From NCBI GenBank assembly GCA_035528035.1, contig DATKZI010000044.1, positions 18,034 to 82,033 on the forward strand: a stretch of 64,000 nucleotides of DNA, given 5' to 3'. The position numbers were made by a program, and so were the translations under genes. This document shows positions 13,618-49,106 of the stretch, in pieces (the stretch's first letter is position 1; each line of letters begins with the position of its first letter). The notes below the pieces were generated by a model. That model had not been told where the DNA came from and searched no databases. It saw only the letters and a program-made list of their open reading frames with translations. The DNA is from Candidatus Bathyarchaeia archaeon. GTDB taxonomy: Archaea > Asgardarchaeota > Heimdallarchaeia > JABLTI01.

Positions 13618-13652
13618 TTATTTTTAAGCCACCTTTGTAGAAAAATTATTGA

Positions 13653-14628: not shown

Positions 14629-14630
14629 TA

Positions 14631-15701: not shown

Positions 15702-15811
15702 TAATTTTTTCCTCCAATCAACTCATTACTTATGAGTGATAGGCAAAGCTAAAATAATTTCTTCTTACTTAAGAAATTTTTCCCTATTTGTGAAAATTCG
15801 AGTAGCTTTAC

Positions 15812-17433: not shown

Positions 17434-17587
17434 AGGGACAACTCTTCATCTCTTCTTTTTTATTTACTAATTTTTTATTATATAAAAAAACTTTTTGCGA
17501 AAAGAAAGAAAAATAATTCTTGTGAGATAATATTATCTCACTTTTTATTTTGCTGAAAAAGCTTAGACATATTAGCAAATTTTATGT

Positions 17588-17821
17588 TTATTCTTGACTA
17601 GCAATCATAGTCATAGTTGATCTTACTTTGTTTAAATGTCGAACTTTTGAAGTGATGATTTCTTTCAAGACTTCCATAGTATCTGCTTGGAGCTTAACAA
17701 TTACGTCGTAAACACCATAAACAACGCTTACTTCTACTACTTCTTTCATTGCTTTTAGTTGTTCAACAACTTCTTGTTCTCCACCAATTTCGGAATTAAT
17801 AAGTACATATGCTTTTGCCAC
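17588..17821 (-). CDS. Stand-alone Lrp/AsnC ligand-binding (RAM) domain protein, a paralogue of 17185..17433
   Basis: The sequence is MAKAYVLINSEIGGEQEVVEQLKAMKEVVEVSVVYGVYDVIVKL...VRSTMTMIA. It starts with GTG. Confidence 0.7.
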   Translation of the reverse strand: MAKAYVLINSEIGGEQEVVEQLKAMKEVVEVSVVYGVYDVIVKLQADTMEVLKEIITSKVRHLNKVRSTMTMIASQE

Positions 17822-17939
17822 GTTAAATCAAACTCCTAATGAGCTTATTATCAATCTGAAAGAAAAGTGTTTTGATTTATTAGAGTTTTCTAAGGACTAA
17901 ACTTTGATTAAATATTTCTATTTTTTCATTTTTTAATTT

Positions 17940-18926: not shown

Positions 18927-19050
18927 TTCTATAAACTCCAGCAATCTTCATATGACTTCCTAATATTTTATAAATCTTTTATGTTAAATGGAATACATAA
19001 CTAATGCTTTTAAATAATGATTATTTTATAATATAATATTAAAATCTCAT

Positions 19051-29244: not shown

Positions 29245-30438
29245 TTAGTGTTTTAAAGTTTGTAATCGAGTAAAACTTTCTTTGCTAAAACATATTGGGC
29301 AACCTGAAGTTTTTAGAATCTCTATGGAACTAATCTCTTCTGATGCACCTACACGAATTTCATGACCGTTTGCACATTGATAGATTCTGATAGTTGGATT
29401 TAATTCACCAGTATAGATATTATCAGAGTAATGAGTTGGATAAAGTATTTTTGCTGAATCTGTAGTGCTTAAAATTGAAAGGAAAGTTGTATTTCCATGC
29501 ATTTCTGCTCCTTCATAAAGATTAAATCCCGGAAGAAGTTGCTGAATTGCAAGACCATGTGCAAAGATTACTCTTTGAAGTTCTAGTAAATCGTTTGGCG
29601 CTCTATGAGCGTAAGCTAAATATATCTTCTTATTTTGTTCTCCCTTTAATATTTGTAATGTTCTTGAGAGAAAAAGATTCAGACCTGACAAAGTATAGGG
29701 AGGATCAGTTAATACAACATCAAATTTATTCTGTAAAAATTCCGGTATTGGTTCTCTTAGATCATGCTGAATACAAGTGATATCAAAATTATTTTCTTGA
29801 GCGACATCCTTTATTATTTTAAGTAAACGTTCATCAATATCGAATACAGTTATTTTAGCTTTAACTTTGAGAAGAGAAATTGCTAATGATGTAAAGTCAT
29901 CATCACCTAAAAGAGCTATTTCTCGTCCTTCAATATCATCATTCTGTAACATGAAATAAGCTCGTCTTATTGCTGTAATTGGTTTACCATATGCTTGATC
30001 TATATCTGTTTTAGGGATCGGTCGTATACTAGTAAACGCTCTCATTTTTTGGAATATTTCATCAATATTACTTGGAAGTTCAATAGTCGTTCCTTCACAT
30101 GTTTTACATGTTAAATCTTCTATATAAGAAAGGCTTAATTGCTCTGTTACATATCTTAATCCTTTTTCTGTTAATATTGCTCCTTTATTATTACGGTCAA
30201 TGATTCCTTCCTTTTCAAGTTCCTTTCGTACCGCAGCTACAGTTGGGATTGGTAAATATAATTTTCTAGCTAAACTTTTGGAGCCAATTGTACCAGATCT
30301 ATAAATTTCTCGAAGAATTCTTCTGACTAATTCTTTCCCTTCTTTTAATTCTGCTCTTTGAGCAATGTTCTCTAAAAGATTATTTGAATTTTTTTGATTT
30401 TGATTTGAAGGAGATTGTTTAGTCATAAAAAAATCCAT
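29245..30438 (-). CDS. DUF43/BpsA-family aminopropyltransferase-like protein (branched-chain polyamine synthase family) with an N-terminal wHTH
   Basis: Motifs LLGDDDFTSLAI and FDVVLTDPPYT are typical of DUF43/BpsA. The C-terminus is Cys-rich (CANGH...CPIC). Confidence 0.65.
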   Translation of the reverse strand: MDFFMTKQSPSNQNQKNSNNLLENIAQRAELKEGKELVRRILREIYRSGTIGSKSLARKLYLPIPTVAAVRKELEKEGIIDRNNKGAILTEKGLRYVTEQLSLSYIEDLTCKTCEGTTIELPSNIDEIFQKMRAFTSIRPIPKTDIDQAYGKPITAIRRAYFMLQNDDIEGREIALLGDDDFTSLAISLLKVKAKITVFDIDERLLKIIKDVAQENNFDITCIQHDLREPIPEFLQNKFDVVLTDPPYTLSGLNLFLSRTLQILKGEQNKKIYLAYAHRAPNDLLELQRVIFAHGLAIQQLLPGFNLYEGAEMHGNTTFLSILSTTDSAKILYPTHYSDNIYTGELNPTIRIYQCANGHEIRVGASEEISSIEILKTSGCPICFSKESFTRLQTLKH

Positions 30439-30441
30439 CTA

Positions 30442-30822
30442 TTACTTAATTTCTCGGGGTAATTCTTTCAATTCAAATGAACCTGGCTGTAGATGTTCTT
30501 TGATATGGTTCCATGCTACAAAAGGGTCCAACGATTCTCCACAAAGGAAAATATCTAATGCAGCAAATCTAAATTCTGGCCAAGTATGAATTGAAATATG
30601 TGTTTCTTTTAGAATAACAATAACACTGCAACCCATTGGTGAAAATCTATGAACTGATGCCTGAAGAACATGAGCTCCAGCAATCTTAGCTGCTTCTGTG
30701 ACCAATGATAATAAAGCCGTTTCATTATTAAGATCAGCTTCACAATTGTAAAGGTCAATTAACAATTCATTTACAGCTAGAGGGTTCTTTAAAGGATATT
30801 TCATAATCTCTTCTTTTGGCAT
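30442..30822 (-). CDS. speH: S-adenosylmethionine decarboxylase-like proenzyme (SpeH class) with Thr at the processing site
   Basis: LIDLYNC, ILKETHISIHTWPE and AALDIFLCG are present. The preferred start is ATG 30820-30822, with AGGTGA 8 nt upstream. The track ORF starts at 30864. Confidence 0.75.
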   Translation of the reverse strand: MPKEEIMKYPLKNPLAVNELLIDLYNCEADLNNETALLSLVTEAAKIAGAHVLQASVHRFSPMGCSVIVILKETHISIHTWPEFRFAALDIFLCGESLDPFVAWNHIKEHLQPGSFELKELPREIK

Positions 30823-30998
30823 ATCGATTTCACCTTTTTTTGCTGCTAATAACAAATAAACCATTAATTTATTAGTATTTTATGATGAGCATTTTTAATT
30901 AACTATTATAAAGTTACTTATCCTTTGATTATGATAAGAATTGTAGTGCTGGAAAACTTTGATAAAAATTATTAAACACAAATTCAGAAGGTAATTCT

Positions 30999-31757
30999 AT
31001 GACTAATGAAGATAGCACAAAAATAATTCGTTTTAGTAAAATCGAATCTACACAACTATTTGCAAGAGCATTGATAAAACAGGGTGATAATATTGATGGA
31101 ACAATAATTATTGCAGAAGAACAAACATTTGGAAAAGGAAGATTAAATAGAAATTGGATTTCACCCAAAGGTGGTGTTTGGTTATCAATTATCCTTCAAA
31201 AAAAATTACCTCTTAGATTATTAGAGGGATTCTCTGTTAGATTTGGTCTTAGATTTGTTAGAAAATTAGGAGAATTAACGGGATTTCCTTTCCAAGTAAA
31301 ATGGCCAAATGATATAATTCTTAATAGTAAAAAATTAGGTGGTATCTTAATAGATATATCCTCTCGAGACGATTCTTTAGAACATTTAATTTTAGGTGTT
31401 GGTATAAATGTCAACATTCAGAATTTTCCTTTGGATATAATAGAAACTGCATCATCTATGCAAATTGAATTGAAAAAAGAGTTTTCTCTAAATGATATCG
31501 AACAATTAATAATTAACACCTATAAAGAACTCATAAATGAATTAACTAATAATAAATTAGAAAAAATTGCTAATATCTGGAAAAATTATTCCTTTACTTA
31601 TAATTCATTGATCAATATTCACTCAGATGACCAACTGATAACTGGTAAAGATATTGGTATAACAGAGACAGGTAATTTGAAAATTGATAGAAATGGAAAA
31701 GTGAAGATAATTTCTATGGGAGAAATTAATCTTTTACGTAAGGTTGTTGAGAATTAG
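30999..31757 (+). CDS. birA: Biotin--protein ligase (group I, no N-terminal HTH)
   Basis: The motif is GKGRLNRNWISPKGG. At about 250 aa it has no DNA-binding domain. Confidence 0.85.
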   Translation: MTNEDSTKIIRFSKIESTQLFARALIKQGDNIDGTIIIAEEQTFGKGRLNRNWISPKGGVWLSIILQKKLPLRLLEGFSVRFGLRFVRKLGELTGFPFQVKWPNDIILNSKKLGGILIDISSRDDSLEHLILGVGINVNIQNFPLDIIETASSMQIELKKEFSLNDIEQLIINTYKELINELTNNKLEKIANIWKNYSFTYNSLINIHSDDQLITGKDIGITETGNLKIDRNGKVKIISMGEINLLRKVVEN

Positions 31758-36358: not shown

Positions 36359-39300
36359 ATGGTTTTAATAAATGATTTTGATAGCTTCATGCAAATGCGT
36401 AAGCCTATTTTGGCTTATAATCCTCCAGGTATATTATCTGTTGATTTGCTAAAAACAGTGATAAGAGAAGGAGGTGTTGGTCTAGTTAATTTAGAGCGCA
36501 TGAAATTAAATGAAAGCAAAGAATTATTGAATGTGTGTTTGTCAGAATTACAGAATAATTGGGGTATTAGGATATCTAATAAACAACAATTAGAATTATT
36601 GCTTAATTTACCAGCAAATACTTCTCCTATACTTCTTATAACAAGCAATTTAGATTTAACACAAGCTGAGTTAGAAAAAATCAAAACTAAACAATTTATC
36701 ATTTTAGCTGAAGTAACCAATTTACAAGAAGCATATTCAAAGAAATGGGCTAGCAGTTATATCGTTAAGGGATACGAAGCAGGTGGTAGAATTGGTAATG
36801 AAACATCTTTTATTTTATCACAACAATTTGCAGATGCAGGTTTATCATTTATTGTTCAAGGAGGAGTTGGGTTATATACTTCCCCAGCAATTTTCATAGC
36901 TGGAGCAAAAGCCATTGTTCTTGACACTCAATTGTATCTTACACCAGAGTGCCCTCTACCTCAGAACATCAAAGATTTTCTTTCAAAATTAGATGCCACT
37001 GATACCAGGGTTTTAGGAGATTCGACAAATTATAAGTATCGAGTCTATGCAAGATTGGGGACAAAAATTGTTAATGATTTTATTATCAAAGAAAAAGAAT
37101 TACTTACTTTTAATAAAAAAGAACGAACGGAAAAAATTCAAAATGAGATATCTTCTCAACGAGAGATGTTTGAGAGTAATAATTTCATGAATAACTTGTT
37201 ACCTATGGGACAAGATATTTCTTTTGCTAAAATTTTAACTGATGAATTTGGCACAGTTACAGGAATCATCAATGGTTTACTTCGCCAAATTGAGAAGCAA
37301 ATTAAATCAGCCATAACAAACTATCCTTTACAGGAAAACAATCTCATATCGAAGGAACTTGGGATACGATACCCAATTATTCAAGGTCCTATGGCAAATG
37401 TTTCCGAGAGTCCTGTTTTTGCTAAACTTATATCAGATGCAGGTGGTTTACCATTTTTAGCTTTAGGTTCTCTGTTTAAAGGTCAAACAAGAACCTTGAT
37501 TACTAAAACTAAAGAAAAACTTGGAGATGCTCCTTTTGGTTGTGGTATTATTGGTTTAGAAGCAAATAAGAAAGCTCGAGATGAGCATCTAAAGATCATA
37601 CAAGAGCTTAAACCACCATTTGTTGTTGTTGCTGCAGGAACAATAGACCAAGCTAAAGAAGTAATGGGTTATGGAATCAAAACATTTCTCCACACTCCCT
37701 CTCCAGCGATATTCCGAGAAGCCTTTGAATCAGGAGTTAGTAATCTTGTTTTAGAAGGAATGGAATGTGGTGGTCATATTGGTGTTCTAACCAGTTTTGT
37801 TCTCTGGGAGCTTTCCCTTCATGAATTGTCAGCTAATAAAGAAAAAATTACCACCAACCAAGGTAAAATTAATGTTGCTTTTGCAGGAGGTATTGGTGAT
37901 AAATTTTCAGCTGCTATGGCAGGAATTCTTTGTTCTGCTCATCCAGAAATAATGAATGGTTTACTATGGGTAGGAACAGCTTATATTTTGGTCAAGGAAA
38001 TTGTAGAAACAGATACTATACAACCATTATATCAACAATTGGCATTGAATGCTAAAGAAACTGTTGTTGTTGGAGAAACAGTAAATACTCGAGCACGTTC
38101 AATTCCAACACCATTTACTAAAGTAATAATTGAACGAGAATTAGCACGTTTAAAAGAAGGAGTAAGTTTAGCTGATAGAAAACATCAATATGAACGAGAT
38201 AATTTAGGGTCTACACGAATTGCTGCCTTAGGAGAAATTTGGAATCCTGAAGGAGAAGATGATAAACCGAATCGTTTTATGCCTATAGACGAGAAAGGAC
38301 AATATCAGAAAGGCAATTATCTTATTGGTCAGATTATTGCCAGTTTAAGATGTATTCGAACTTTAGATGATCTCCATACTGATTTGATAATCAATTCAGA
38401 AGAACTTGTGAAAAAACGAGCTGAAAGTATTTCTGAAAGGTTGGTTCCCTCACAACAAAAGATTGAAAGCAGCTTAATTAGTGATGAAAGTGTTCTTCCT
38501 GAATATGACCTAAAATCTTTCGAAGACGAAGGAATAGCTATTGTAGGTTTAGGATGTGTCTTTCCTGATGCCTTAAATATCAATGCATTTTGGAATAATA
38601 TACTCAATAAAGTTTATTCAATTAAAGAAATACCATCTGAGAGATGGGCTGATAATATTGATCTTTTTTATGATCAAAATAAGGACGCTCCAAATAAATC
38701 GTATACAAAAATTGCTGCTTCTATTTCTAATTTTAATTTCAATTCACTTGAATTTAAAATCCCCCCAAAAGTTGCCATTACAATGGGCAGAGCTCAAAAA
38801 TTAGCTTTGGTTGCTGCTAAAGAAGCATTAGAAGATGCTAAAATGCTAAGTAGTGATTATGACCATTCTAGAACAGCAGTTATAATAGGCAATTCCATGG
38901 GTGATGAAATTAGAACAAGTCATTCTCGAAAGGTTTTCGCTCCAGAAGTTTTATCTAGAATTGAAAAATCATCTTCATTCTCAAATATTGATAATAAAAC
39001 TTGGGAGAAGATTAAAACTCAAGTATTAGCAGATTATGAAACACAGCTTGTTCCTATAAACGAAGATACCATGCCTGGAGAACTTTCTAATGTAATTGCT
39101 GGTCGTATCTCTAACACTTTTAATCTTCGTGGTAAAAATATGACTACTGATGCTGCTTGTGCTTCAAGTCTTGCAGCACTAAATGTAGCTGCAAAAGGTC
39201 TTCTCGATTTTGAATATGATATAGTTTTATGTGGAGGAGCAGATTGCTCGTTGGATCCACCTACTTTTATTAAATTTGCTAAGATAGGTGCTTTATCAGC

Positions 39301-42300
39301 TGAAGGTTCATATCCTTTTGATGATAGAGCTAATGGATTTGTTATGGGAGAAGGCGCAGGATTTTGTATTTTAAAACGACTCTCTGATGCAACAAGAGAT
39401 GGCGATAAAATTTATGCTGTTGTAAGAGGAATGGGTGCTTCTTCTGATGGAAGAGGGAAAGGTATTACTGCACCAAATCCTTCAGGTCAAAAACTAGCAA
39501 TAGAACGTGCACTTGAACAAGCTAAAATTAAATTTTCAGATATTCAACTTGTAGAAGCTCATGGAACAAGTACGATTGTTGGTGATGCTGTTGAATTACA
39601 AGTTCTAAATGAAATTGCAAAAAATGTTACTCCGGGATCAATTGCTATAGGCTCTATTAAAAGTCAAATTGGACATTTAAAAAGTGCTGCAGGTATTGCT
39701 TCACTAATAAAAACTGCTTTAGCATTACATCATAAAACATTACCTCCTTCCGTTAACTTTGAAAAACCTAATCAAAAGATTGACTGGAAAATCTCACCAT
39801 TTTATGTTAATGTTACTAAAAATGATTGGAATAAACCTGCGACAGATATTAGAATAGCTGGGATATCAGCATTTGGTTTTGGTGGGACAAATTATCATGC
39901 CATTTTAGAAGAATATATTCCTGGTAAAACTAAAGGTTATCTACCAAAAGTAATCTCAATTGAAGAGATTCAAAAAATATTTAGCAGTTTAAAAGCTACT
40001 AAACCAATTACTGCTAGCACCGATTTTGAAGAGGTTTTTGATAAAAAGGGTTGGCAGAATTACTATCAAAAAAATGTTCATTTAGAAACAGAAGCTTTAT
40101 TCATCGGAGCTAGTTCTAATGAAAAATTACTAGCTGAATTACAAAGATACCAAAGTAAAATTACAGCTACGACCTATCCAATTGATGGAATTGGCTTACG
40201 TATAAGAGATTTAGCTTTCGAAAGTTTAAGTGCTCTTTCTAATAAAAATAAAATTGGTTTTACAGCAAATTCTGTTGATGATATTCCTACAATAATTAAA
40301 ACAGCAATTGAAGGTTTAAATGATAAAACCAAAAGAACATTCTTACAAAATAAGGGAATCTTTTACAGTGATGACCATTCATTAGGCAAGATTGCTTTTC
40401 TATTTCCTGGGCAAGGAAGTCAATATGTTCGTATGGGCAAAGAACTTTGGGATAAATATGAAATTGTAAGAGAAACATTCAGAGAAGCAGATGAAATAAC
40501 ACAGAAAATGATGAATTTCAAAATTACTGAGGCTATTTTTGCTATAGGAAAAAATGATGATAAAGCAAATGAATTATTAAAGCAAACAGAAATTACTCAA
40601 CCAGCAATTTTTGTTCTTAATATAGCCATTTATCGTCTCCTAGAATCATTTGGAATTAAACCTGATTTTGTAGCTGGACATTCTCTTGGTGAATATTCAG
40701 CATTAGTTTCAGCAGGAATTTTAAGCTTCGGTGATGGTTTAAGAGCGGTTGTTCCTAGAGGTCAAGCTATGGCTGAATTTTCAACTAAAGATAAAGGGAT
40801 TATGGCCTCTGTAAGTGCTGGTTACGAAGAAATAGATGAACTCCTTCAGAAAATAGATGGCTATGTTATCTGTGCAAATAAAAATACTCCTAATCAAACA
40901 GTTATCTCTGGAGCAACAAAAACAGTAAAAGCAGCTATGAAGATATTTGCCGAAAAAGGAATTCAAGCAATACAATTACCTGTTTCTGCAGCATTTCATT
41001 CTAAAATAGTTGCACCTGCAGTTGATCATTTAAGAATTTCTTTAGAAAAATTAACATTCAATAAACCAAAAATGAATATTTCAAGCAATGTCACAGGCAA
41101 ACTTTATCCCACTACTCGAGATGAGATAATTAATCTTTTGTGTGAACAAATATCTTCACCCGTTGAGTGGATTAAACAAATAAAATCTATGTACGAAGAT
41201 TATGGAGTTAAAACTTTTATTGAGATTGGTCCAAAGTACGTTTTAACAAGTTTTACTCGAGCAATACTCGATGATAAGAAGGATTATTTCGCTTTAGCTT
41301 CCAATCATCCAAAGAAAGGAGCTATGCAACATTTCAATGAAGTAATTGCTGCCTTAGGAACATTTGGTTATCCATTGAAAATACCATCCTTAAATGATAA
41401 TCTCTATGCAGATGAATTCAGAAATCCTCTAAAGAGATTCTTTATCAGAAAGCCAATTGAAAGACAAACTTCAGTTGCAACTATAGTTAAAGAGTCTCCT
41501 TTCGATGTTTTATTGGATCAAGAATTAGAAAAATTAACTGGTGATAGTTCATTCAAAGATTATTTAGAATTACAAGGACCAGCCATTTCGGCTTTTCTCA
41601 AGGTAGGTTATAATACCTACAAAGATAAAATTGCTTCTGCAATAAAAGAAAAAGAAGAAATGGATAAACTTGAGATAAATACTGAACCAATTGGTGTGAC
41701 TGGTATTTCCATAGGACTTCCAGGAAAAAATAGACATGTTTTTGATGATTCTAATTTTGATGCAATACTCAATGGTCAGAATTTCATTGAGAAGATTCCT
41801 CTAGAATTCAGAAATAAAATGGTTGATAAGAATATTGTTAGATTAGTGAAGGATGCTGTTAAAGGTGCTCAATTCCAAACAATAACTGATGTAAAAGATG
41901 TAATCAAACTAGCAGCACAAAAAGGAGAATTTGATTTATCAAAAGAATATGGTATTGATGTTGAATTTACATCCGTTTTAGATATCACTTTCCAATTAGC
42001 CTTTGCTGCTGGAATTGAAGCATTACGCGATGCAGGAATACCTTTAGTACCAATGAAAACGCAAACATCAGTTGGTAAGGAAATTACTAAAGGTTGGGCA
42101 TTACCAGAATCGTTAAGAGATGATACCGGAATAGTTTTCGCTTCAGCTTTTCCTGGATATAGCAATTTAATATCAATAATTTCAAAATATCTTACAGATA
42201 AATACAGCAAGAAGAATAAGGAAGAAAAATTGGTTCTATATCAAGAACTAATAAATCAGATTTCTAATGAATCAGCTAAGAAGCAGATTAATACTTGGTT

Positions 42301-45300
42301 TGAAAAGAATAAAACACTATTAACTACTGAAGAAACACATTTTGAATTCAGTAGAAAATTCTTATTTGAAATTCTCTCTATGGGACATTCACAATTTGCT
42401 CAATTAATACGAGCACGAGGTCCAAATACCCAAGTCAATGCAGCATGTTCATCAACAACACAAGCCATTGCAATTGGTGAGGATTGGATTCGTAATGGTC
42501 GATGTAATAGAGTAATTGTTATTGCAGCAGATGATGTAACTAATGATGAAATGCTTGAATGGATCGCTTCAGGTTTTCTTGCAGTAGGTGCTGCAACAAC
42601 TAAAGAGAAGGTTGAGGAAGCAGCCTTACCATTCGATAACCGGAGACATGGTATGATTATCGGTATGGGTGCTGCTGGAATTATTTTGGAATCTGATAGT
42701 GTAATAAAGGCTCGAGGAGTTAAACCAATTGCTGATCTATTAGGCACACATATAGTGAATTCTGCTTTTCATGGAACACGATTAGACAGAGATCATATAT
42801 CTTCGCAAGTAGATGAATTTATTTCAAAGATTGAAAAGAGATACAAAATTTCTCGAGAGGAAATAGCTCGACAATTAGTTTTTGTAAGTCATGAGACATA
42901 TACACCTGCAAGAGGAGGAAGTGCTTCTGCTGAGATAGATGCTCTTAGAAGGACCTTTGGTAATTTTATTGATAATATCGTTATTGCTAATACTAAAGGT
43001 TTCACAGGGCATGCAATGGGAGCAGGAATAGAAGATGTTGTAGCAATTAAGATTTTAGAAAAAGGTATTGTTCCACCAGTAGCAAATTGGAAAGAACAAG
43101 ACCCTGAATTAGGTAAATTGAATCTTTCAAAAGGTGGAAAATATGATGTTAAATATGCTCTTCGATTTGCAGCAGGATTTGGTTCACAATTAACTTTAGC
43201 TTTATTTAGAGTTAATACACAACAGAATAGATTCCAAAGTGGTGAATATGACCAATGGTTACAATCTTTACATGGTAGTCGTCAAACCCTTGAAGTTGTT
43301 AACAAAACTTTACGTTTAAACAAAGATCCTTCACTCATTCAACAAAAACAAATTGAATTGAAATCAGAAATACTTTCGACTCAAGCTTCATCTATGAAAG
43401 AATTAGATAAAGATCTTTTAACAACTATTGTTAATTTAATTTCTGAAAAAACTGGCTATCCAGTTGATATGATTGAACCTAATATGCATCTTGAGGAAGA
43501 CTTGGGAATAGATACAGTCAAACAAGCTGAATTATTTGGCTTAATTAGAACTAAATACAATTTACCTCGAGAGGAGGGAGTTAGAATTCAAGAATATTCA
43601 TCAGTTAATAAAATAGCTGAATATATTTCTTCCAAATTATCTCCTGGAACATCCGCTCAAAAGGATGTTGTTCAACAGATAGCTATTACTGACGATAAAG
43701 TCTCGAGTAGCCTTGGTCAAAAAGATGATATTGTTAAAGAAATAACCAACATGATCTCTGAAAAAACTGGTTATCCAGTAGAGATGATCGAACCTGAAAT
43801 GGAATTAGAAGAAGACTTAGGTATTGATACTGTTAAACAAGCTGAAATGTTTGGTATAATACGAACAAAATGGAATCTACCTCGAGAAGAGGGGATAAAG
43901 ATCCAAGAATATTCTACTGTAAACAAAATAGCTGATTATATTCTTAATCGGTTAAAAGGTTCTGAAACCAAACAAACAATTTCTTCAACAGTCGATACTT
44001 CTGAAGCTTCTATGGATGAGATTATTCCCGCAAAGAGATTAGCAATTCAACTAATTGAAGCCCCTTTACCTAAAGTAGATAAACTTTCGTTATCAAAGAA
44101 GAAATTCATTATTGTAGGAGAAAGTAACCAATTTAGTGATGAATTGCTAGAAATTCTTCGAAAACAAAAAGCAACAATCGTAAATGTTCTTGATATTAAG
44201 AAAATTAATTCTGAAACTAAACTTAAACAAGAATTACCTACTGAAGAAATTGATGGTTTAATATACATTGAACCAAAAACAACACAAAATAATAAGCATA
44301 ATAATACAGCTAGAACACTATTCCTACTTTGTAAATTAACTAAATTTAGTGAAAAACCCTTCATTTTAACCATAAATAATTCAGATTCAGCTTTTGGATG
44401 GGAAGGAAAGACTTCTCCTATAACTGGTTCAATAACTGGTTTAACAAAATCGCTAGCTCGAGAATTCTCAAAGGGAATTATTAGAACTGTTTCATGCTTA
44501 AAACCAGAACAAGCTATTTCTGAATTAATTTCAGGTGATGGTTCAATTGAAATCTCTTATGATAAAGCAGGTAACAGAAGAATTTTTGCAACTCAAGAAT
44601 CACCTATCTCAACTAAACAAACACAATTCAAACCAACATCTGATGATCTAATAATTATCTCCGGTGGAGCTCAAGGTATTACTTATGAAATTACCAAAAA
44701 AATTGCTGAAAAATATAAAACAAAATTAGCTTTACTTGGCAGAACCAAATTACCTGAAAATATTGATGAATTAGTAGCATTGGACCAAAATGGTTTAGAT
44801 AATCTTAAAGCTCAAATGATCGAACAACTAAAAGCAAAAGAAGATAAAGTAACTCCTGTTATCATTGAAAAAGAATGGTCTAAGATAACTAAAGCTATTA
44901 GCGTTAAAAAAGCACTTAACTATCTTATCAAACAAGGTTCTCCAACAAGATATTATTCTGTTGATGTTATTAACAACGAAGAAATGGTTCAAACAATCCA
45001 AAAAATCACTAAAGACTTTAAGCAAATCGTAACCGGAATTGTTCATGGTGCTGGTTTAGAATCATCTAAATTAATTGGTGAGAAAAAAATAGACGATTTT
45101 GATAATGTCTACAACGTTAAAGCTATTGGTTTTGACAATTTATTAACAAATCTAGATGTAAAACAACTCAAGTTTGTTGTCTGTTTCTCCTCAGTTGCAG
45201 GAAGATTTGGAAATGCTGGGCAAGTGGATTATTCTGCTGCAAACGATTATCTAAGTAAAAGCTGTTGGCAATTACATTCACAAGGACTTCGAGCGATTTC

Positions 45301-47101
45301 TGTTTGTTGGTCAGCTTGGGATGAGATAGGGATGGCAACAAGAGGTTCTGTTATGAAGATTTTGAAATATGCTGGTGTAACACCACTAAAAGTTGAAGAT
45401 GGTGTTAATGCATTTATTCAAGAACTTGAATATGGTCAAGAAGCAGAAATTGTTATTGCTGGGAAATTAGGTGTTTTATTGGATTCACCAGCAGCATTTA
45501 TTTCAATTGATTCCAAATCCTATCCTTTAATTGGAGAATTTAAACGAAATTTTGATGGCTCAATAACAGCTGAAAGAACATTTAGTTTAGAAAATGATCT
45601 TTATCTTAATCACCACAGATTTGAGGATATACCTTATCTGCCAGGTGTTATGGGATTAGAATTATTTGTTGAATTAGCAAGAATAATGTATCCTTCAAAG
45701 ATAATAAATAGATTCGAAAATGTCTCCTTCAAATCAGCAGTCAAATTCAAGAATGATATCCCTAGAAAACTAAGATCTAAATTATCCTTTAGTAATGATT
45801 TAGCGAAAGTTATTTTAGAATCAGATTTTGAAAAGGATGGAGTAAAACTTGGTGAAACAAGAACACATTTTACTGCGGATATTGTTTTTGGTAAAAAAGA
45901 AATTAAAATAATAGATATACCAAAAATGAAATCAGGTTATCTTGTAAATAATTCTAGGATTTACAAAATTCTTCCACATAAGGAATTATTCCGAACTTTG
46001 AAAGGCATCAATGAAATTACTAAACAAATCATATCCATACCAACTGAAGTAAAAGGTAATCAATTTGCTTGGGATATTAAAGAATTATATGCTGAACCTT
46101 TAGTAATTGAAGCAGCATTTCAAACAATGGGACTCTTAGATATTATTAAAGATAACAAGTTAGGATTGCCTTTTAGCATAAAATCTCTTCAATATTATCA
46201 GACAAAAGAACAACCTGCATATATTTTTGGTACAAAAGTAGCTGATACAGATTTTGGTAGTTTATATAATTTTGAAGTTGTAACCAAAACTGGACAATTA
46301 CTTATGGAGGCTAATGGTTATGCAACAGTTCACGTTGATTTTGGTGCTGATCTTTCGGGAATTGATGATATTCAAATAGATCGAGTTAAACGATTGTTTT
46401 CGTTACCTCCTGGAACTTTTCTTGAAGTGAACAATGTATCACAAATAAAGAAAATGATAGAATCAAATCCTAATTTAGTTACAGATTATCTTCATCCTGA
46501 TGAAATAGAACATTTGAAAACACTTACAATAGAAAAACGAAGAAATGAATGGTTAAGTGGAATTATAGCTGTCAAAAAAGCCTTACAAAAATATAAACCT
46601 GAAATACAAATTAATAACATTAAAATAGAGAAAAACGAGTTAGGCAAACCCTTCATTAAATTGAACAAAAACGAAAGTATTTACGTTTCTATTACACATA
46701 GCAATAGTTTTGCTGTTGGGATAATAAATCCTTCAATTGATACAGGTATTGATCTAGAAATAATTGAAAAAAGAGACCAAGCAATTATTGATGAATTACT
46801 TAGTCCAAAGGACCAGGAATTTTTACAAAATAATAAACAAGCAATCACTGAAGAATTATTAACTAAAATATGGTCTGCAAAGGAAGCAGCTTCTAAAGTT
46901 TTAGGTGTTGGATTGAATATTGATTTGCATGATTTAATTGTCAGTAAATATGATGAACAAGAGATAACTATTCAAGTAAACCCAATTAAATTACCTCAAA
47001 ATAACAAACTAAAACCATACAGCAAAGATATTGAATTATCAACAAAACTCGATACAAATGAAGAATATGTTGCGGCAGTCTGCCGACTAAAAAGTTTATA
47101 G
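36359..47101 (+). CDS. Giant multidomain type I fatty-acid/polyketide synthase-like megasynthase (NMO-like, ER, KS, AT, KS, ACP, ACP, KR, DH, PPTase)
   Basis: It is one uninterrupted 3580-aa ORF, with GGAG 8 nt upstream of the ATG. All domain motifs were read directly from the sequence and are listed in the sub-features below. Confidence 0.9.
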   Translation: MVLINDFDSFMQMRKPILAYNPPGILSVDLLKTVIREGGVGLVNLERMKLNESKELLNVCLSELQNNWGIRISNKQQLELLLNLPANTSPILLITSNLDLTQAELEKIKTKQFIILAEVTNLQEAYSKKWASSYIVKGYEAGGRIGNETSFILSQQFADAGLSFIVQGGVGLYTSPAIFIAGAKAIVLDTQLYLTPECPLPQNIKDFLSKLDATDTRVLGDSTNYKYRVYARLGTKIVNDFIIKEKELLTFNKKERTEKIQNEISSQREMFESNNFMNNLLPMGQDISFAKILTDEFGTVTGIINGLLRQIEKQIKSAITNYPLQENNLISKELGIRYPIIQGPMANVSESPVFAKLISDAGGLPFLALGSLFKGQTRTLITKTKEKLGDAPFGCGIIGLEANKKARDEHLKIIQELKPPFVVVAAGTIDQAKEVMGYGIKTFLHTPSPAIFREAFESGVSNLVLEGMECGGHIGVLTSFVLWELSLHELSANKEKITTNQGKINVAFAGGIGDKFSAAMAGILCSAHPEIMNGLLWVGTAYILVKEIVETDTIQPLYQQLALNAKETVVVGETVNTRARSIPTPFTKVIIERELARLKEGVSLADRKHQYERDNLGSTRIAALGEIWNPEGEDDKPNRFMPIDEKGQYQKGNYLIGQIIASLRCIRTLDDLHTDLIINSEELVKKRAESISERLVPSQQKIESSLISDESVLPEYDLKSFEDEGIAIVGLGCVFPDALNINAFWNNILNKVYSIKEIPSERWADNIDLFYDQNKDAPNKSYTKIAASISNFNFNSLEFKIPPKVAITMGRAQKLALVAAKEALEDAKMLSSDYDHSRTAVIIGNSMGDEIRTSHSRKVFAPEVLSRIEKSSSFSNIDNKTWEKIKTQVLADYETQLVPINEDTMPGELSNVIAGRISNTFNLRGKNMTTDAACASSLAALNVAAKGLLDFEYDIVLCGGADCSLDPPTFIKFAKIGALSAEGSYPFDDRANGFVMGEGAGFCILKRLSDATRDGDKIYAVVRGMGASSDGRGKGITAPNPSGQKLAIERALEQAKIKFSDIQLVEAHGTSTIVGDAVELQVLNEIAKNVTPGSIAIGSIKSQIGHLKSAAGIASLIKTALALHHKTLPPSVNFEKPNQKIDWKISPFYVNVTKNDWNKPATDIRIAGISAFGFGGTNYHAILEEYIPGKTKGYLPKVISIEEIQKIFSSLKATKPITASTDFEEVFDKKGWQNYYQKNVHLETEALFIGASSNEKLLAELQRYQSKITATTYPIDGIGLRIRDLAFESLSALSNKNKIGFTANSVDDIPTIIKTAIEGLNDKTKRTFLQNKGIFYSDDHSLGKIAFLFPGQGSQYVRMGKELWDKYEIVRETFREADEITQKMMNFKITEAIFAIGKNDDKANELLKQTEITQPAIFVLNIAIYRLLESFGIKPDFVAGHSLGEYSALVSAGILSFGDGLRAVVPRGQAMAEFSTKDKGIMASVSAGYEEIDELLQKIDGYVICANKNTPNQTVISGATKTVKAAMKIFAEKGIQAIQLPVSAAFHSKIVAPAVDHLRISLEKLTFNKPKMNISSNVTGKLYPTTRDEIINLLCEQISSPVEWIKQIKSMYEDYGVKTFIEIGPKYVLTSFTRAILDDKKDYFALASNHPKKGAMQHFNEVIAALGTFGYPLKIPSLNDNLYADEFRNPLKRFFIRKPIERQTSVATIVKESPFDVLLDQELEKLTGDSSFKDYLELQGPAISAFLKVGYNTYKDKIASAIKEKEEMDKLEINTEPIGVTGISIGLPGKNRHVFDDSNFDAILNGQNFIEKIPLEFRNKMVDKNIVRLVKDAVKGAQFQTITDVKDVIKLAAQKGEFDLSKEYGIDVEFTSVLDITFQLAFAAGIEALRDAGIPLVPMKTQTSVGKEITKGWALPESLRDDTGIVFASAFPGYSNLISIISKYLTDKYSKKNKEEKLVLYQELINQISNESAKKQINTWFEKNKTLLTTEETHFEFSRKFLFEILSMGHSQFAQLIRARGPNTQVNAACSSTTQAIAIGEDWIRNGRCNRVIVIAADDVTNDEMLEWIASGFLAVGAATTKEKVEEAALPFDNRRHGMIIGMGAAGIILESDSVIKARGVKPIADLLGTHIVNSAFHGTRLDRDHISSQVDEFISKIEKRYKISREEIARQLVFVSHETYTPARGGSASAEIDALRRTFGNFIDNIVIANTKGFTGHAMGAGIEDVVAIKILEKGIVPPVANWKEQDPELGKLNLSKGGKYDVKYALRFAAGFGSQLTLALFRVNTQQNRFQSGEYDQWLQSLHGSRQTLEVVNKTLRLNKDPSLIQQKQIELKSEILSTQASSMKELDKDLLTTIVNLISEKTGYPVDMIEPNMHLEEDLGIDTVKQAELFGLIRTKYNLPREEGVRIQEYSSVNKIAEYISSKLSPGTSAQKDVVQQIAITDDKVSSSLGQKDDIVKEITNMISEKTGYPVEMIEPEMELEEDLGIDTVKQAEMFGIIRTKWNLPREEGIKIQEYSTVNKIADYILNRLKGSETKQTISSTVDTSEASMDEIIPAKRLAIQLIEAPLPKVDKLSLSKKKFIIVGESNQFSDELLEILRKQKATIVNVLDIKKINSETKLKQELPTEEIDGLIYIEPKTTQNNKHNNTARTLFLLCKLTKFSEKPFILTINNSDSAFGWEGKTSPITGSITGLTKSLAREFSKGIIRTVSCLKPEQAISELISGDGSIEISYDKAGNRRIFATQESPISTKQTQFKPTSDDLIIISGGAQGITYEITKKIAEKYKTKLALLGRTKLPENIDELVALDQNGLDNLKAQMIEQLKAKEDKVTPVIIEKEWSKITKAISVKKALNYLIKQGSPTRYYSVDVINNEEMVQTIQKITKDFKQIVTGIVHGAGLESSKLIGEKKIDDFDNVYNVKAIGFDNLLTNLDVKQLKFVVCFSSVAGRFGNAGQVDYSAANDYLSKSCWQLHSQGLRAISVCWSAWDEIGMATRGSVMKILKYAGVTPLKVEDGVNAFIQELEYGQEAEIVIAGKLGVLLDSPAAFISIDSKSYPLIGEFKRNFDGSITAERTFSLENDLYLNHHRFEDIPYLPGVMGLELFVELARIMYPSKIINRFENVSFKSAVKFKNDIPRKLRSKLSFSNDLAKVILESDFEKDGVKLGETRTHFTADIVFGKKEIKIIDIPKMKSGYLVNNSRIYKILPHKELFRTLKGINEITKQIISIPTEVKGNQFAWDIKELYAEPLVIEAAFQTMGLLDIIKDNKLGLPFSIKSLQYYQTKEQPAYIFGTKVADTDFGSLYNFEVVTKTGQLLMEANGYATVHVDFGADLSGIDDIQIDRVKRLFSLPPGTFLEVNNVSQIKKMIESNPNLVTDYLHPDEIEHLKTLTIEKRRNEWLSGIIAVKKALQKYKPEIQINNIKIEKNELGKPFIKLNKNESIYVSITHSNSFAVGIINPSIDTGIDLEIIEKRDQAIIDELLSPKDQEFLQNNKQAITEELLTKIWSAKEAASKVLGVGLNIDLHDLIVSKYDEQEITIQVNPIKLPQNNKLKPYSKDIELSTKLDTNEEYVAAVCRLKSL
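36395..36965 (+). other. Megasynthase domain: degenerate NMO/FabK-like TIM-barrel domain (copy 1)
   Basis: GGVGLVNL, VKGYEAGGRIG (Arg where the second copy has His) and IVQGGVG are present. There is no GPM motif. Confidence 0.5.
37361..38440 (+). other. Megasynthase domain: FMN-type enoyl reductase (NMO / FabK / PfaD-like, copy 2)
   Basis: IRYPIIQGPMANVSE, LVLEGMECGGHIG and AFAGGIGD are present. Confidence 0.7.
38531..39916 (+). other. Megasynthase domain: ketosynthase 1
   Basis: GIAIVGLGCVFP is present. The active-site Cys lies in TTDAACASSL (TGT 39158-39160), with HGTSTIVGD (His codon 39560) and SQIGHLKSAAG (His codon 39674). Confidence 0.9.
40388..41269 (+). other. Megasynthase domain: acyltransferase (malonyl-type)
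   Basis: FLFPGQGSQY, GHSLGEYSA (Ser codon 40682-40684), VVPRGQAM and VSAAFHS are present. Confidence 0.85.
41690..43213 (+). other. Megasynthase domain: second, divergent ketosynthase
   Basis: VNAACSSTTQAI retains the Cys (TGT 42446-42448). Both His residues are kept, in SHETYTPARGG (His codon 42890) and TKGFTGHAMGAG (His codon 43010). Confidence 0.75.
43412..43639 (+). other. Megasynthase domain: carrier protein 1 (PUFA-synthase-type ACP) with Thr at the attachment position
   Basis: The sequence is ISEKTGYPVDMIEPNMHLEEDLGIDTVKQAELFG. The Thr codon ACA lies at 43514-43516. Confidence 0.8.
43724..43954 (+). other. Megasynthase domain: carrier protein 2 with Thr at the attachment position
   Basis: The sequence is ISEKTGYPVEMIEPEMELEEDLGIDTVKQAEMFG. 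The Thr codon ACT lies at 43829-43831, 315 nt after the ACP1 site. Confidence 0.8.
44031..45490 (+). other. Megasynthase domain: ketoreductase (structural plus catalytic SDR subdomains)
   Basis: It has the Rossmann motif IIISGGAQGIT and the catalytic region FSSVAGRFGNAGQVDYSAANDYL (Tyr codon 45230-45232). Confidence 0.8.
45521..46345 (+). other. Megasynthase domain: PKS-type (double hotdog) dehydratase
   Basis: LNHHRFEDIPYLPGVMGLE matches the HxxxGxxxxP-like motif, with D in place of G. The His codons lie at 45611-45616. Confidence 0.65.
46484..47098 (+). other. Megasynthase domain: C-terminal 4'-phosphopantetheinyl transferase
   Basis: RRNEWLSGIIAVKKAL, ITHSNSFAVG, GIDLEIIE and WSAKEAASKVLG are present. 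Confidence 0.75.
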
Positions 47102-47252: not shown

Positions 47253-49106
47253 ATGGCATTTGCTACAAGATCAAAGTTTTTCTGGTCACGTTTCATTGCT
47301 ACTTGTGTTAAATATTTAGGAGTAGCGAATACTCAACAAATCAAGTATTTAGCTGAAAAATTATTACCAACTGATATGAGTCGCCAGAATATTCTTTATC
47401 ATGTTAGAATTGCTGAAGAAAAGGGTTGGATTGCTTCATTTGCTTCGACATTAGAGATAACTTCTGAAAATGAGATTCTCTTTAGAAAAGAATTTCTTGA
47501 GAAAGTGCAAGAGAAAATTTCCGCCCAACGTTTTGTTATAATTGGCACGGAAAATTTTGAACCTACTGCAGAAGAAAAAATAATTGCTGCATGTAAAGAA
47601 GCAAAACTTCATCCTATTTTTTTTACTGATCCTATTTTAATGGAAAAGATATCTGAAGACACAATTAATCGATTGACTTCAACAAATCATAAATCTCCTG
47701 GGAATAAATCACTTTTTATGGTCTTATTGCGATTCGCTTGGTTTTGGTTAAATATTGATCCTGAAAAATCTTTAGAGATCATTAAAGTACTAAAAAATAA
47801 CGTTATAAAACACAATTATAATGACCATTATAAAATAGATGTTGATTTGCTTGAAATCGCTACAATGATAGAATTAGAAACATTACCAGAATTAGGAGTA
47901 AATGATCTAAAGAATTTGTTAATCGAATGCATTAAATTTTCAGCAAATAAAAAAAGATCAGATTTAATGAATTTAATGAGTATGACATTGTTAATCTCAG
48001 GTCGCTTTTTAGTTTCATATAATAAATTAACTTTAGCTGAGGAATATTTGAATAGAGGAATAAAGTATCTCCGATTCAGTACTCGAAAGTCAATTCTTAT
48101 GCGTAAATTACATGTAGATGGTCTTTTTGATTTAGGATATATTTATTCACAACAAGGTTGGTTCTATAAGGCTCTAAGTATTTATGAAAATATTGAACGA
48201 ATAATTAATGAAGAATTTCTTGAGAATGAACCAACAACAAATCTCAAAGGTAGATTAGCTTTAGCAAATGCTGAATTATTTTTGATGATGGCTTTTCCAT
48301 CTTACATTTTTCAAGATGAGGATTATCGTGCTGCTCTATTGAAAGCTGTTAAACAAACTCAAATGGCAATTAAATTTTATCAAGGAACAAAAAATACTCT
48401 TAAAGTAACTGAAATCACTTTACTTAGTGCTTGGATTCATGCTCTTCTTGGTAAATTAAAACGAGCTGATTTATTGTTAAAACGAGCAATAACTAATTTA
48501 TCTGCACCAGTTCCTCCAAAATTAAATGTGTTCTATTTTAATGCTTTAGCAGAAATATATAGGAAAGAAGGTAATTACGCTAAAGCTATAAAGAATATTT
48601 CGCAGTCCTTTGATTATCTAAAAATTATTGGTCAAAATATTGGTAAATTGTTCTGTATGACACGCTTAGCTGAATTACATGTTCAATTATCTAAGAGGGA
48701 AAATCGTTTATCCTATCTTTCCTTTGGTGATGTTTCATATCTCTTTGAAAAACAAATATCTGATTTGATTAGCCATGTTTTTCTTGAAACATGTAAATCT
48801 CTATCTAATAATTCTGCTATGGTTTCATTTTTCTTATTTGATGACTTAATTGAAATTCATCCTGAAATAAATTCATACACTGATATCTTACCATCCCAAA
48901 ATATCTCTCCTGTCTTACTCGGTGAATCTTTCACTATCATACCTAATCATCTTATAAATCATGAAAATATCAACAAAGGAAAATCAATTTGTATTGTTGG
49001 TTCAATGAAACACGATGAAACATTAGATGATTTTACTATTCAACAATTTAAAGAAGAAATGTCTGGTTTTGATGATACATTTCAAAAATTACTTGCTAAA
49101 TCATAA
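47253..49106 (+). CDS. Hypothetical protein with an N-terminal wHTH-like segment and TPR-like helical repeats
   Basis: The N-terminus is YLAEKLLPTDMSRQNILYHVRIAEEKGWI. The C-terminal two thirds have TPR-like periodicity (for example YFNALAEIYRKEGNYAKAIKNISQSFDY). Confidence 0.55.
   Translation: MAFATRSKFFWSRFIATCVKYLGVANTQQIKYLAEKLLPTDMSRQNILYHVRIAEEKGWIASFASTLEITSENEILFRKEFLEKVQEKISAQRFVIIGTENFEPTAEEKIIAACKEAKLHPIFFTDPILMEKISEDTINRLTSTNHKSPGNKSLFMVLLRFAWFWLNIDPEKSLEIIKVLKNNVIKHNYNDHYKIDVDLLEIATMIELETLPELGVNDLKNLLIECIKFSANKKRSDLMNLMSMTLLISGRFLVSYNKLTLAEEYLNRGIKYLRFSTRKSILMRKLHVDGLFDLGYIYSQQGWFYKALSIYENIERIINEEFLENEPTTNLKGRLALANAELFLMMAFPSYIFQDEDYRAALLKAVKQTQMAIKFYQGTKNTLKVTEITLLSAWIHALLGKLKRADLLLKRAITNLSAPVPPKLNVFYFNALAEIYRKEGNYAKAIKNISQSFDYLKIIGQNIGKLFCMTRLAELHVQLSKRENRLSYLSFGDVSYLFEKQISDLISHVFLETCKSLSNNSAMVSFFLFDDLIEIHPEINSYTDILPSQNISPVLLGESFTIIPNHLINHENINKGKSICIVGSMKHDETLDDFTIQQFKEEMSGFDDTFQKLLAKS

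Follow-up and report, generated by a model that had tools for sequence, protein, structure and literature searches.

A Single Open Reading Frame Encodes a Multidomain Megasynthase

The 64,000-nucleotide stretch analyzed here (hereafter the window) comes from a contig deposited as Candidatus Bathyarchaeia archaeon and placed in the Heimdallarchaeia (assembly GCA_035528035.1, contig DATKZI010000044.1, positions 18,034 to 82,033), and it carries a gene for a megasynthase with the domains of fatty acid and polyketide synthases. This gene (36359..47101, + strand) is one ATG-to-stop open reading frame (ORF) of 3,580 aa, with exactly the coordinates given in an initial annotation made from the sequence alone. 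The window is AT-rich (~31% GC), the GC content of the ORF (0.31-0.34) is the same as that of its flanks, and a random frame at this composition would meet one stop per ~13 codons; a stop-free run of 3,580 codons is computed to occur by chance with a probability of ~1e-126. Scans with Pfam and NCBIfam models, made on the whole protein and on nine overlapping pieces, return a FabK-like pseudo-enoyl reductase (N1), a FabK-like enoyl reductase (ER), a PfaA-type ketosynthase (KS1), a malonyl acyltransferase (AT), a FabF-like ketosynthase (KS2), two acyl carrier proteins (ACPs), a ketoreductase (KR), a polyketide synthase (PKS)-type dehydratase (DH), and an Sfp-type phosphopantetheinyl transferase (PPTase). 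This is the order that the initial annotation had read from motifs, all of which are found in the ORF at the expected relative positions.

36401..37318 (+), N1, degenerate FabK/NMO-like TIM barrel; aa ~15-320; Pfam NMO 33.5 bits (partial), FabK model 42 bits
37340..38428 (+), ER, FabK-type FMN enoyl reductase; aa ~328-690; QGPM at aa 342-345, GGHIG at aa 471-475
38528..39931 (+), KS1, PfaA-type ketosynthase; aa 724-1191; Cys in DAACASS (aa 931), His in HGTST (aa 1068) and in GHLK of GHLKSAAG (aa 1105)
40397..41347 (+), AT, malonyl-CoA:ACP transacylase; aa 1347-1663; GQGSQ (aa 1351), GHSLGE (aa 1440), AAFHS (aa 1544)
41681..43258 (+), KS2, FabF/KAS II-like ketosynthase with ~150 aa of conserved insertions; aa 1775-2300; AACSS (aa 2028), SHETYT (aa 2177), TGHAMG (aa 2216)
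43424..43627 (+), ACP1; aa 2356-2423; attachment-site residue Thr2386 (ACA, 43514-43516)
43739..43942 (+), ACP2; aa 2461-2528; attachment-site residue Thr2491 (ACT, 43829-43831)
44216..45463 (+), KR with structural subdomain; aa ~2620-3035; GGAQGIT (aa 2769), YSAAN (aa 2958)
45524..46327 (+), DH, PKS-type double-hotdog; aa 3056-3323; HHRFEDIPYLPG (aa 3085); PKS_DH_N 27.6 bits, PS-DH 23.3 bits
46475..47083 (+), PPTase, Sfp-type 4'-phosphopantetheinyl transferase, two-lobed; aa 3373-3575; GIDLE (aa 3463), WSAKEA (aa 3505)

As the initial annotation had also stated, no thioesterase (TE), methyltransferase or FabA-type domain scores above threshold in the megasynthase with the Pfam and NCBIfam models, FabA reaching only 13 bits (E 0.067), within the PKS DH.

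A scan of species-representative genomes recovered a 3,581-aa orthologue on a 153-kb contig of a Candidatus Heimdallarchaeota metagenome-assembled genome (MAG; locus L001), which is 64% identical over its full length with 1% gaps and is surrounded by genes in the same order as in the window. In a third Heimdallarchaeota MAG, from another study (L012), the locus is the same as far as the contig end. Further full-length relatives are P0168 (3,506 aa, with the same architecture and three ACPs) and P0169 (3,740 aa), and an exhaustive search of representative proteins yielded several more of 3,500-4,000 aa with the order N1-ER-KS-AT-KS2-...-PPTase. We consider the gene to be real and under selection because of its identity to the L001 orthologue with so few gaps, the synteny in three Heimdall MAGs, and the existence of P0168 and P0169. 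The gene is not an assembly fusion of several genes, a concern raised in the initial annotation, since equivalent full-length genes exist in independent assemblies; the uninterrupted architecture is present in at least four of these (the window, L001, P0168, and P0358-like representatives).

Both Ketosynthases Have Intact Catalytic Residues

KS1 is best described by the PfaA model of NCBIfam (TIGR02813, 443 bits), scores 207 and 133 bits with the N- and C-terminal ketoacyl-synt models of Pfam, and matches KS-AT structures in the Protein Data Bank (PDB). The AT reaches 256.8 bits with the FabD model, just missing the equivalog cut-off of 260.9 bits, and 165 bits with Acyl_transf_1, and TIGR02813 also spans it (248 bits); its motifs point to malonyl as the unit loaded.

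For KS2, FabF is the best NCBIfam model (133 bits) as well as the match in the PDB, and the AlphaFold model (pLDDT 90) displays a complete FabF/KAS II thiolase fold, with a Foldseek TM-score (TM) of 0.86 to FabF at ~20% identity. The Cys, both His, and the Lys of the active site are invariant in 36 diverse sequences. Since this Cys-His-Lys-His set is intact and invariant, KS2 is, as far as its residues tell, a competent condensing enzyme and a true KS, for which the name chain-length factor (CLF) is a misnomer. The invariant Cys likewise leads us to reject a CLF or a KSQ-type decarboxylase. The two KS domains of the initial annotation are both there with intact catalytic residues, and the second indeed lies between the AT and the ACPs; it is not an extra peculiar to this protein, and defines instead an existing class of synthases, Type R, which is described below. 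In synthases of polyunsaturated fatty acids (PUFAs), two KS domains have been shown experimentally to split the elongation work (PMC11962503).

Several relatives vary this part of the architecture. P0169 (GCA_942491575.1; L009 10001-21223) has an extra Cys-less, CLF-like KS (IDASSVSS) between KS1 and AT, together with three Thr-type ACPs (see below), no fused PPTase (this being a separate gene upstream), and genes for BirA, a multidomain carboxylase, and BioY downstream. A stand-alone 552-aa KS2 paralogue, sister to the KS2 clade of the window, occurs without synthase neighbors at L010 10001-11659 and L011 9125-10783, near a YhhN-family gene and a glycerol-3-phosphate-dehydrogenase-like gene, in a MAG of the same project as L001. 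The KS2 match in a Nostocoides isolate (L005) is an isolated fragment with no cluster around it.

Threonine Occupies the Attachment Position of the Carrier Domains

The two ACPs first proposed from motifs are found as two PP-binding domains, with the correction that the residue at their attachment position is Thr, not Ser. Both have the motif EEDLGIDTVKQAE, of the Thr-type LGIDTVK, in which Thr2386 and Thr2491 align with Ser36 of Escherichia coli ACP and with the Ser of the related LSIDSIKR ACPs of locus L008; neither domain has the Ser that serves as 4'-phosphopantetheine site and is the hallmark of PF00550. Every ACP repeat of L001 and of three bacterial loci (L003, L004, and L006) has Thr, as do 34/34 motifs of 23 KS2-family proteins. 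An exhaustive HMMER search with ACP1 gave 516 representative clusters at E <= 1e-30, and the best 150 of the 516 were classified. Among these 150, the KS2-bearing proteins comprise 64 with only Thr, 5 with one stray Ser motif, and 1 with only Ser (P0314), whereas the classical PfaA-like KS-AT-ACPn-KR proteins are Ser-type in 41/41 cases; the motif totals are 399 Thr and 236 Ser. The class-wide Thr motif is DLG[IV]DTVKQAE (P0290-P0439 representatives). While the residue is nearly constant in the class, the number of ACPs is not, with 2 in the window and L001, 3 in P0168 and P0169, and 3-6 in bacterial members.

The synthases of this class always have a PPTase of their own, either fused or encoded beside them, in which the motifs for binding Mg and CoA (GIDLE and WSAKEA) are intact. 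The simplest inference is that this enzyme installs phosphopantetheine on Thr, which, if so, would be the most surprising consequence for the biochemistry of the class. A literature search returned no description of Thr-linked phosphopantetheine, nor of Thr-type carriers in the Type R class, and this hallmark of the class appears to be undescribed.

A Tandem FabK Module Forms the N Terminus

The AlphaFold model of N1 and ER (AF2, with the family alignment; pLDDT 93, pTM 0.94) folds the 700 N-terminal residues into two TIM barrels that form one rigid unit. Its top Foldseek matches are FabK enoyl-ACP reductases (TM 0.88, 24-26% identity), whereas PfaD and the ERs of trans-AT systems are much weaker (TM 0.54-0.60, 12-14% identity; for PfaD, TM ~0.54 and 13%), and the PfaD model of NCBIfam (TIGR02814) has no match in the megasynthase. 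We therefore rejected a PfaD-type ER, so that from the FabK/PfaD-type FMN enzyme of the initial annotation the FMN type and the likeness to FabK remain and the likeness to PfaD does not.

The ER combines the TIM barrel, GPM, and GGHIG features of FabK, and in an alignment of 29 sequences Q342, G343, P344, and M345 are invariant and H473 nearly so. The same set is not found in N1, which can be aligned to FabK residues 117-249 and is 27% identical to the ER across 82 aa: it has GGRIG (aa 141-146) in place of the catalytic GGHIG, Arg replacing His, and has lost the GPM motif, as befits the degenerate NMO-like domain that had been suspected here. In the family alignment, the catalytic-His position of N1 varies, and its motifs QGGxG and GAxxxVLDxQ are strongly conserved. 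FabK is a dimer, and in our reading N1 arose by duplication, degenerated, and now stands in for the second FabK subunit, which would make the module an intramolecular pseudo-dimer of an inactive barrel and an active ER. Alternatively, N1 may have a residual ligand-binding or catalytic role, for example as a FabX-like second flavoenzyme, although its catalytic-His position is variable.

A word-indexed search found the tandem module in 31 clusters, most of them from Asgard archaea and a few from bacteria (30-35% identity), and the N1-ER fusion is a minority subtype present in ~10 of the 150 class representatives. What the initial annotation had regarded as unusual, the fusion of an ER to such a synthase, has a precedent in the PUFA-type synthase of Schizochytrium; the tandem FabK module is the part that is rare. 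A split variant, ER'-ER-KS-AT / ACP2-KR / KS-AT-DH-PPTase, lies at L008 10001-21283; it is bacterial-type, with Ser-ACPs and no FabF-like KS2, and its first two genes look like one gene broken inside the AT. Pfa-like scaffolds outside Type R can thus carry the tandem FabK module too.

The KR aligns with positions 1817-2265 of the PfaA model at 176 bits, scores 121 bits with the Pfam KR model, and matches KR structures in the PDB. In the DH, His3086 and the D/E-xxx-Q motif (E3251-xxx-Q) are conserved in the family alignment. The PPTase is recognized by the Pfam models ACPS (69 bits), AASDHPPT_N, and 4PPT_N and matches HetI, AusB, and Sfp; its C-terminal fusion is common among the 150 class representatives.

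The Synthase Core Belongs to the Type R Class

Shulse & Allen 2011 (PLoS One 6:e20146) described a secondary-lipid cluster, Type R, consisting of a pfaA homologue with the order KS-MAT-CLF-ACP(3-6)-KR (MAT, malonyl acyltransferase) and a downstream PPTase, of unknown product. It was found in Acidobacteria, Elusimicrobia, and Chloroflexi (Koribacter, Solibacter, Elusimicrobium, and Roseiflexus), with no archaeal members and with an acyl-CoA carboxylase (ACC) gene in Koribacter; our literature search returned no later characterization. More than 1,300 homologues of KS2, ~50-56% identical to it, come from phyla that include Chloroflexi, Acidobacteria, Actinobacteria, Myxococcota, Gemmatimonadota, and Elusimicrobia, and the bacterial loci have the layout [KS-AT][KS2(-ACP)][ACPn-KR][DH...] plus a PPTase, beside a multidomain ACC and often genes for an acyl-CoA dehydrogenase (ACAD) with EtfAB(-FeS). 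The KS1, AT, and KR of the window have median identities of 50, 45, and 35% to the KS2-bearing, Thr-type class versus 40, 34, and 32% to classical PfaA. Judged by architecture and by phylum-level homologues (48-56% identity in Acidobacteria, Elusimicrobia, and Chloroflexi), the core KS1-AT-KS2-ACPn-KR-DH-PPTase belongs to Type R. It shares with that class the second KS-like domain between the AT and the tandem ACPs, the fused or associated PPTase, and the frequent ACC neighbor. It differs from the published description in having two ACPs rather than 3-6, a KS2 that keeps Cys-His-His-Lys, and a PKS-type DH, which was not listed in 2011, and also in its Asgard host, its fused tandem FabK module, and its archaeal split-subunit ACC. 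These last three are what is new here, the core itself being already known.

Other systems resemble the megasynthase in parts. The PfaABCDE synthases of bacteria and thraustochytrids likewise have tandem ACPs, an ER that is an FMN-type TIM barrel, an Sfp-type PPTase of their own, and a pair of KS activities per system, and the PfaA model is the best match for KS1, the ACP repeats, and KR-DH of the megasynthase. The likeness to PfaA proposed from the order KS-AT-ACPn-KR-DH is supported. Unlike them, it is a single chain with a FabK-like ER, it has no FabA-type DH/isomerase, PfaB, or KS-CLF pair, and its ACPs have Thr where theirs have Ser (LGIDSIK). The enediyne synthases PKSE (SgcE and CalE8) are iterative, self-priming enzymes with the order KS-AT-ACP-KR-DH-PPTase, with no ER, no second KS, and one Ser-ACP, and they work with a hotdog TE and an enediyne cassette. 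The order of these domains and the integrated C-terminal PPTase, a likeness that was rightly pointed out in the initial annotation, are found in the megasynthase too, which differs in its ER and second KS; no hotdog TE or enediyne cassette was found in the 64-kb window.

Individually, the ER, KS2, and AT are closest, by sequence and structure, to proteins of the fatty acid synthase of type II (FAS II), namely FabK (TM 0.88), FabF (TM 0.86), and FabD (257 bits). Unlike FAS II, however, the megasynthase is one polypeptide with a duplicated FabK, one copy of which is degenerate, and with ~150 aa of insertions in its FabF-like domain. Type I FASs of fungi and of the CMN bacteria have a full set of activities, an FMN-dependent TIM-barrel ER, and, in fungi, a C-terminal PPTase, and the fungal ER is a weak Foldseek match (rank 50). 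Their domain order, scaffolding, and types of DH and malonyl/palmitoyl transferase are nonetheless all different, and we see no evidence of common descent of the assemblies.

Neighboring Genes Encode a Carboxylase and Its Biotin Ligase

The genes next to the megasynthase are the following.

30999..31757 (+), BirA, biotin-protein ligase; TIGR00121 184 bits
31754..32557 (-), alpha/beta-hydrolase, esterase-like, in an operon with the two genes below; same position in L001 and L012
32589..33068 (-), biotin carboxyl carrier protein (BCCP); conserved in L001 and L012
33073..34545 (-), biotin carboxylase (BC); conserved in L001 and L012
34718..36325 (+), acyl-CoA carboxylase carboxyltransferase (CT), PccB/MmdA family; Carboxyl_trans 653 bits
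47253..49106 (+), tetratricopeptide repeat (TPR) protein, next gene downstream of the synthase; a 617-aa ORF in the same place in L001

The CT gene shares its strand with the megasynthase, ends 33 bp upstream of it, is probably cotranscribed with it, and keeps its position relative to the synthase in L001, L007, and L012. BC, BCCP, and hydrolase genes are transcribed divergently from it, and this hydrolase-BCCP-BC / CT-megasynthase layout is kept in three Heimdall genomes. BirA, which lies next to these in the window, is adjacent in L007 and L009 as well, the former a Thorarchaeota contig with the order BirA-CT-[NMO-KS...], preceded by genes for thiolase, ACAD, and EtfBA. A link to malonyl-CoA supply is universal, in the form of separate ACC subunits plus BirA in Asgard archaea and, in bacteria, of a multidomain ACC that BirA and BioY may or may not accompany. 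The locus thus combines the supply of malonyl-CoA, the biotinylation this requires, and the priming of the carriers with every activity for building and reducing the chain. A scan for sigma-70 promoters and terminators gave the same result as shuffled sequences, such a scan not being applicable to an archaeon.

In the related loci, genes for ACAD and EtfB/EtfA, often with an Fe-S/CCG oxidoreductase, flank the synthase (L003 790-6492, L004 1217-6783, L006 545-4133, and L007 1425-7251, with thiolases in Thor); where a FabK-type ER is not fused, they may be an alternative, electron-transfer flavoprotein-linked partner for enoyl reduction or desaturation. The ACC of the bacterial relatives is a eukaryote-like multidomain protein of ~1,900 aa, BC-BCCP-ACC_central-CT (L004 14554-20939, L003 15822-21458, and L009 21989-27850). 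In the called product of L004, PS-DH runs straight into BC-BCCP, a join that points to a fusion of synthase and carboxylase or else to an artefact, namely a frameshift in a long-read assembly.

The Host Is an Asgard Archaeon

The closest relatives of KS2 and of the N-terminal module are labeled Heimdallarchaeota, Asgard group, Hodarchaeota, Promethearchaeota, Thorarchaeota, Heimdallarchaeaceae, and Candidatus Kariarchaeum pelagius. Those of the CT are from Asgard, Heimdall, and Thor MAGs (76-86%), with a next tier from Thermoplasmatota, Methanobacteriota, and Kariarchaeaceae (62-68%). Among the other products of the window are an insertase of the EMC3/TMCO1 family, a Get3/ArsA ATPase, a TRAP-beta-like protein, a protein with a VTT domain, and BpsA, a branched-chain polyamine synthase. 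This archaeal/eukaryote-type gene set, the Asgard-labeled relatives, and the archaeal-type CT identify the host as an Asgard archaeon rather than a bacterium; scans of the window for tRNAs and Rfam families gave nothing informative for taxonomy. In a neighbor-joining tree of KS2, which has no bootstrap support and a very distant outgroup and was not used for the direction of transfer, the Asgard and double-NMO lineages branch off deeply at several points close to Elusimicrobia and do not fall within the main radiation of bacteria. The synthase thus does not seem to have been transferred recently from a sampled bacterial group, and the archaeal-type ACC shows the locus to be a mosaic that was put together in archaea.

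Some of the other genes in the window deserve mention. Homologues of eukaryotic endoplasmic reticulum-membrane biogenesis factors lie within ~17 kb (9798-10376, 22263-23231, 23437-24528, and 24998-26470), this cluster comprising the EMC3/TMCO1-family insertase, the VTT (VMP1/TMEM41/DedA) protein, the Get3/ArsA ATPase, and a 490-aa TRAP-beta-like plus BatD/DUF11-like protein. The BpsA-type synthase (29245-30864) has an N-terminal MarR/winged helix-turn-helix domain and adjoins an S-adenosylmethionine decarboxylase, a pairing known from thermophilic archaea. A possible serine-pathway or glycan/sulfation cluster occupies the region 12337-20292, where the products are a DUF1015 protein, a class-V aminotransferase, a pair of D-2-hydroxyacid dehydrogenases, a GT4 glycosyltransferase, and a Sulfotransfer_3 protein. 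There are two large TPR proteins (47253-49106 and 59771-61897) and a bactofilin-domain protein (62407-63579).

Proposed Function and Alternative Explanations

We are highly confident of the anatomy, family, and host of the megasynthase taken together, and its domain identities, intact catalytic motifs, and conserved locus suggest the following order of events. The adjacent archaeal-type BC/BCCP/CT carboxylase, biotinylated by the neighboring BirA, would make malonyl-CoA, and the C-terminal PPTase would turn ACP1 and ACP2 into holo carriers by modifying Thr2386 and Thr2491 rather than the customary Ser. The FabD-like AT would then load malonyl units, and the elongation cycles would be divided between KS1 and KS2, as in PUFA synthases, with the length of the chain or its structure close to the thioester probably deciding which of them acts, while KR, DH, and FabK-type ER would fully reduce each beta-carbon. 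With no FabA-type isomerase, the product would be a saturated or nearly saturated linear acyl chain, released by the conserved alpha/beta-hydrolase or by an acyltransferase. The FAS set of KS, AT, ACP, KR, DH, and ER is present entirely in cis and has no release domain, for which the hydrolase is a candidate; this domain content also favors the expectation of the initial annotation that a reduced chain is likelier than a PUFA. We thus lean, by a little, toward a self-contained, self-priming, fully reducing iterative type I synthase with a saturated or nearly saturated acyl product.

Several points weigh against this assignment. We know of no precedent for Thr at the attachment site of a carrier protein, and the S36T variant of E. 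coli ACP is reportedly not modifiable by AcpS. No member of the class has a known product, a saturated fatty acyl chain having domain content as its whole basis, and iterative synthases can skip the ER or DH in programmed cycles. A TE or acyltransferase release domain is absent from the megasynthase, and the hydrolase is a generic esterase-like protein without a specific thioesterase signature. The PccB/MmdA family to which the CT belongs makes propionyl-CoA carboxylation possible. Most bacterial members of the class have no fused ER, and several lie beside ACAD/EtfAB genes, so the class may not be uniformly fully reducing. Finally, cultured Asgard archaea (Lokiarchaeial) are said to have isoprenoid ether lipids, and a fatty acyl product may be minor or specialized.

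The main rival to a saturated chain is a programmed product, namely a specialized, partly reduced secondary lipid (a long-chain hydroxy, keto, or mono-unsaturated chain, or a hydrocarbon precursor). The activity of ER and DH would then be confined to programmed cycles, on the pattern of the synthases for heterocyst glycolipids or of others that are Pfa-like. When the class was first defined, it was as a synthase of secondary lipids whose product was unknown (Shulse & Allen 2011), and its bacterial carriers already have FAS II, so that there it cannot be the primary FAS. Two KSs with tandem ACPs are typical of programmed highly reducing iterative PKSs and PUFA synthases, no TE is present, and the distribution among Asgard MAGs appears patchy, with only 31 N-terminal clusters found. 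However, the complete KR-DH-ER set in cis is specific to the archaeal subtype, the dedicated ACC implies a high malonyl-CoA flux, and the core locus of three genomes conserves no tailoring enzyme (glycosyltransferase, methyltransferase, reductase, or sulfotransferase-TE), which makes this alternative a real possibility but the less likely of the two. It is far more probable than a Pfa system collapsed into one protein with products like eicosapentaenoic or docosahexaenoic acid. Such a system would account for the tandem ACPs, the two KSs, and the best scores of KS1, ACPs, and KR with TIGR02813, and NaPDoS placed Heimdall KS domains nearest to PUFA KSs (PMC7472256). Neither the megasynthase, apart from the subthreshold FabA hit inside its DH, nor the flanks contain a FabA-type DH/isomerase, though, and no PfaB or PfaC equivalent was found in the flanks. 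Moreover, the ER is FabK-like, KS2 is FabF-like with an active Cys rather than part of a PfaC KS/CLF pair, and the ACPs have Thr where classical PfaA has Ser, so this rival is already largely refuted by domain content and we regard it as very improbable.

An enediyne-type relative making a conjugated polyene is just as hard to uphold. While the order KS-AT-ACP-KR-DH-PPTase with a C-terminal Sfp-type PPTase is the hallmark of PKSE, the megasynthase has a fused active ER and a second KS, the PfaA model beats the generic PKS models, and the conserved partners are ACC and BirA, with no SgcE10-type hotdog TE or enediyne cassette genes found in the flanks. We give equally little credence to an artefact, that is, a giant ORF made by assembly fusion or a bacterial contig mis-binned as archaeal. 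It is true that every source is a metagenome assembly, that the core class is overwhelmingly bacterial, and that labels can err (one CT homologue is labeled Zixibacteria and one KS2 homologue Halobacteriales). Yet, besides the recurrence of the architecture across assemblies and the vanishing chance of so long a stop-free frame, the 64-kb window itself contains the EMC3/TMCO1-family, Get3, BpsA, and archaeal-type CT genes. The contigs are also long (153 kb for L001 and up to 441 kb for that carrying the window's CT), GC is uniform over the locus, and MAG labels from several studies agree on Asgard.

Implications

According to current accounts, archaea have no FAS I and no complete FAS II, and ACP and ACP synthase are almost universally missing from them (bioRxiv 10.1101/2024.07.05.601840). 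The locus is of interest because most archaea are thought to lack ACP-dependent fatty acid synthesis, and our literature search returned nothing on a PUFA synthase or megasynthase in Asgard archaea. Beyond what the initial annotation contained, the most interesting points are the archaeal host, the conserved carboxylase, BirA, and hydrolase neighbors, and the carriers with Thr in place of Ser. The megasynthase is a candidate for ACP-dependent fatty acyl synthesis in Heimdall-, Hod-, Thor-, and Prometheoarchaeota, and it brings back to attention the orphan Type R synthases, many of whose carriers belong to bacterial phyla that dominate in the environment. Should the Thr be modified, this would be a new variant of a highly conserved posttranslational modification in lipid and natural-product biosynthesis, and it would provide an orthogonal carrier/PPTase pair for engineering.

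In its widest form, the idea is that Asgard archaea, among them the Heimdallarchaeia, to which eukaryotes are closer than to any other archaeal lineage, have a self-sufficient, ACP-dependent, de novo FAS that feeds their lipids, and that Thr-linked phosphopantetheine, installed by a coevolved PPTase, extends across Type R. We put forward this combined proposal as a speculative one, with the odds against it. If true, there would be an enzymatic route across the archaeal/bacterial "lipid divide", for which carboxylase, biotin ligase, and PPTase are all supplied by the system itself. The locus offers a specific, clonable candidate with which the adoption of fatty acid membranes by the archaeal ancestor of eukaryotes can be put to experimental test.

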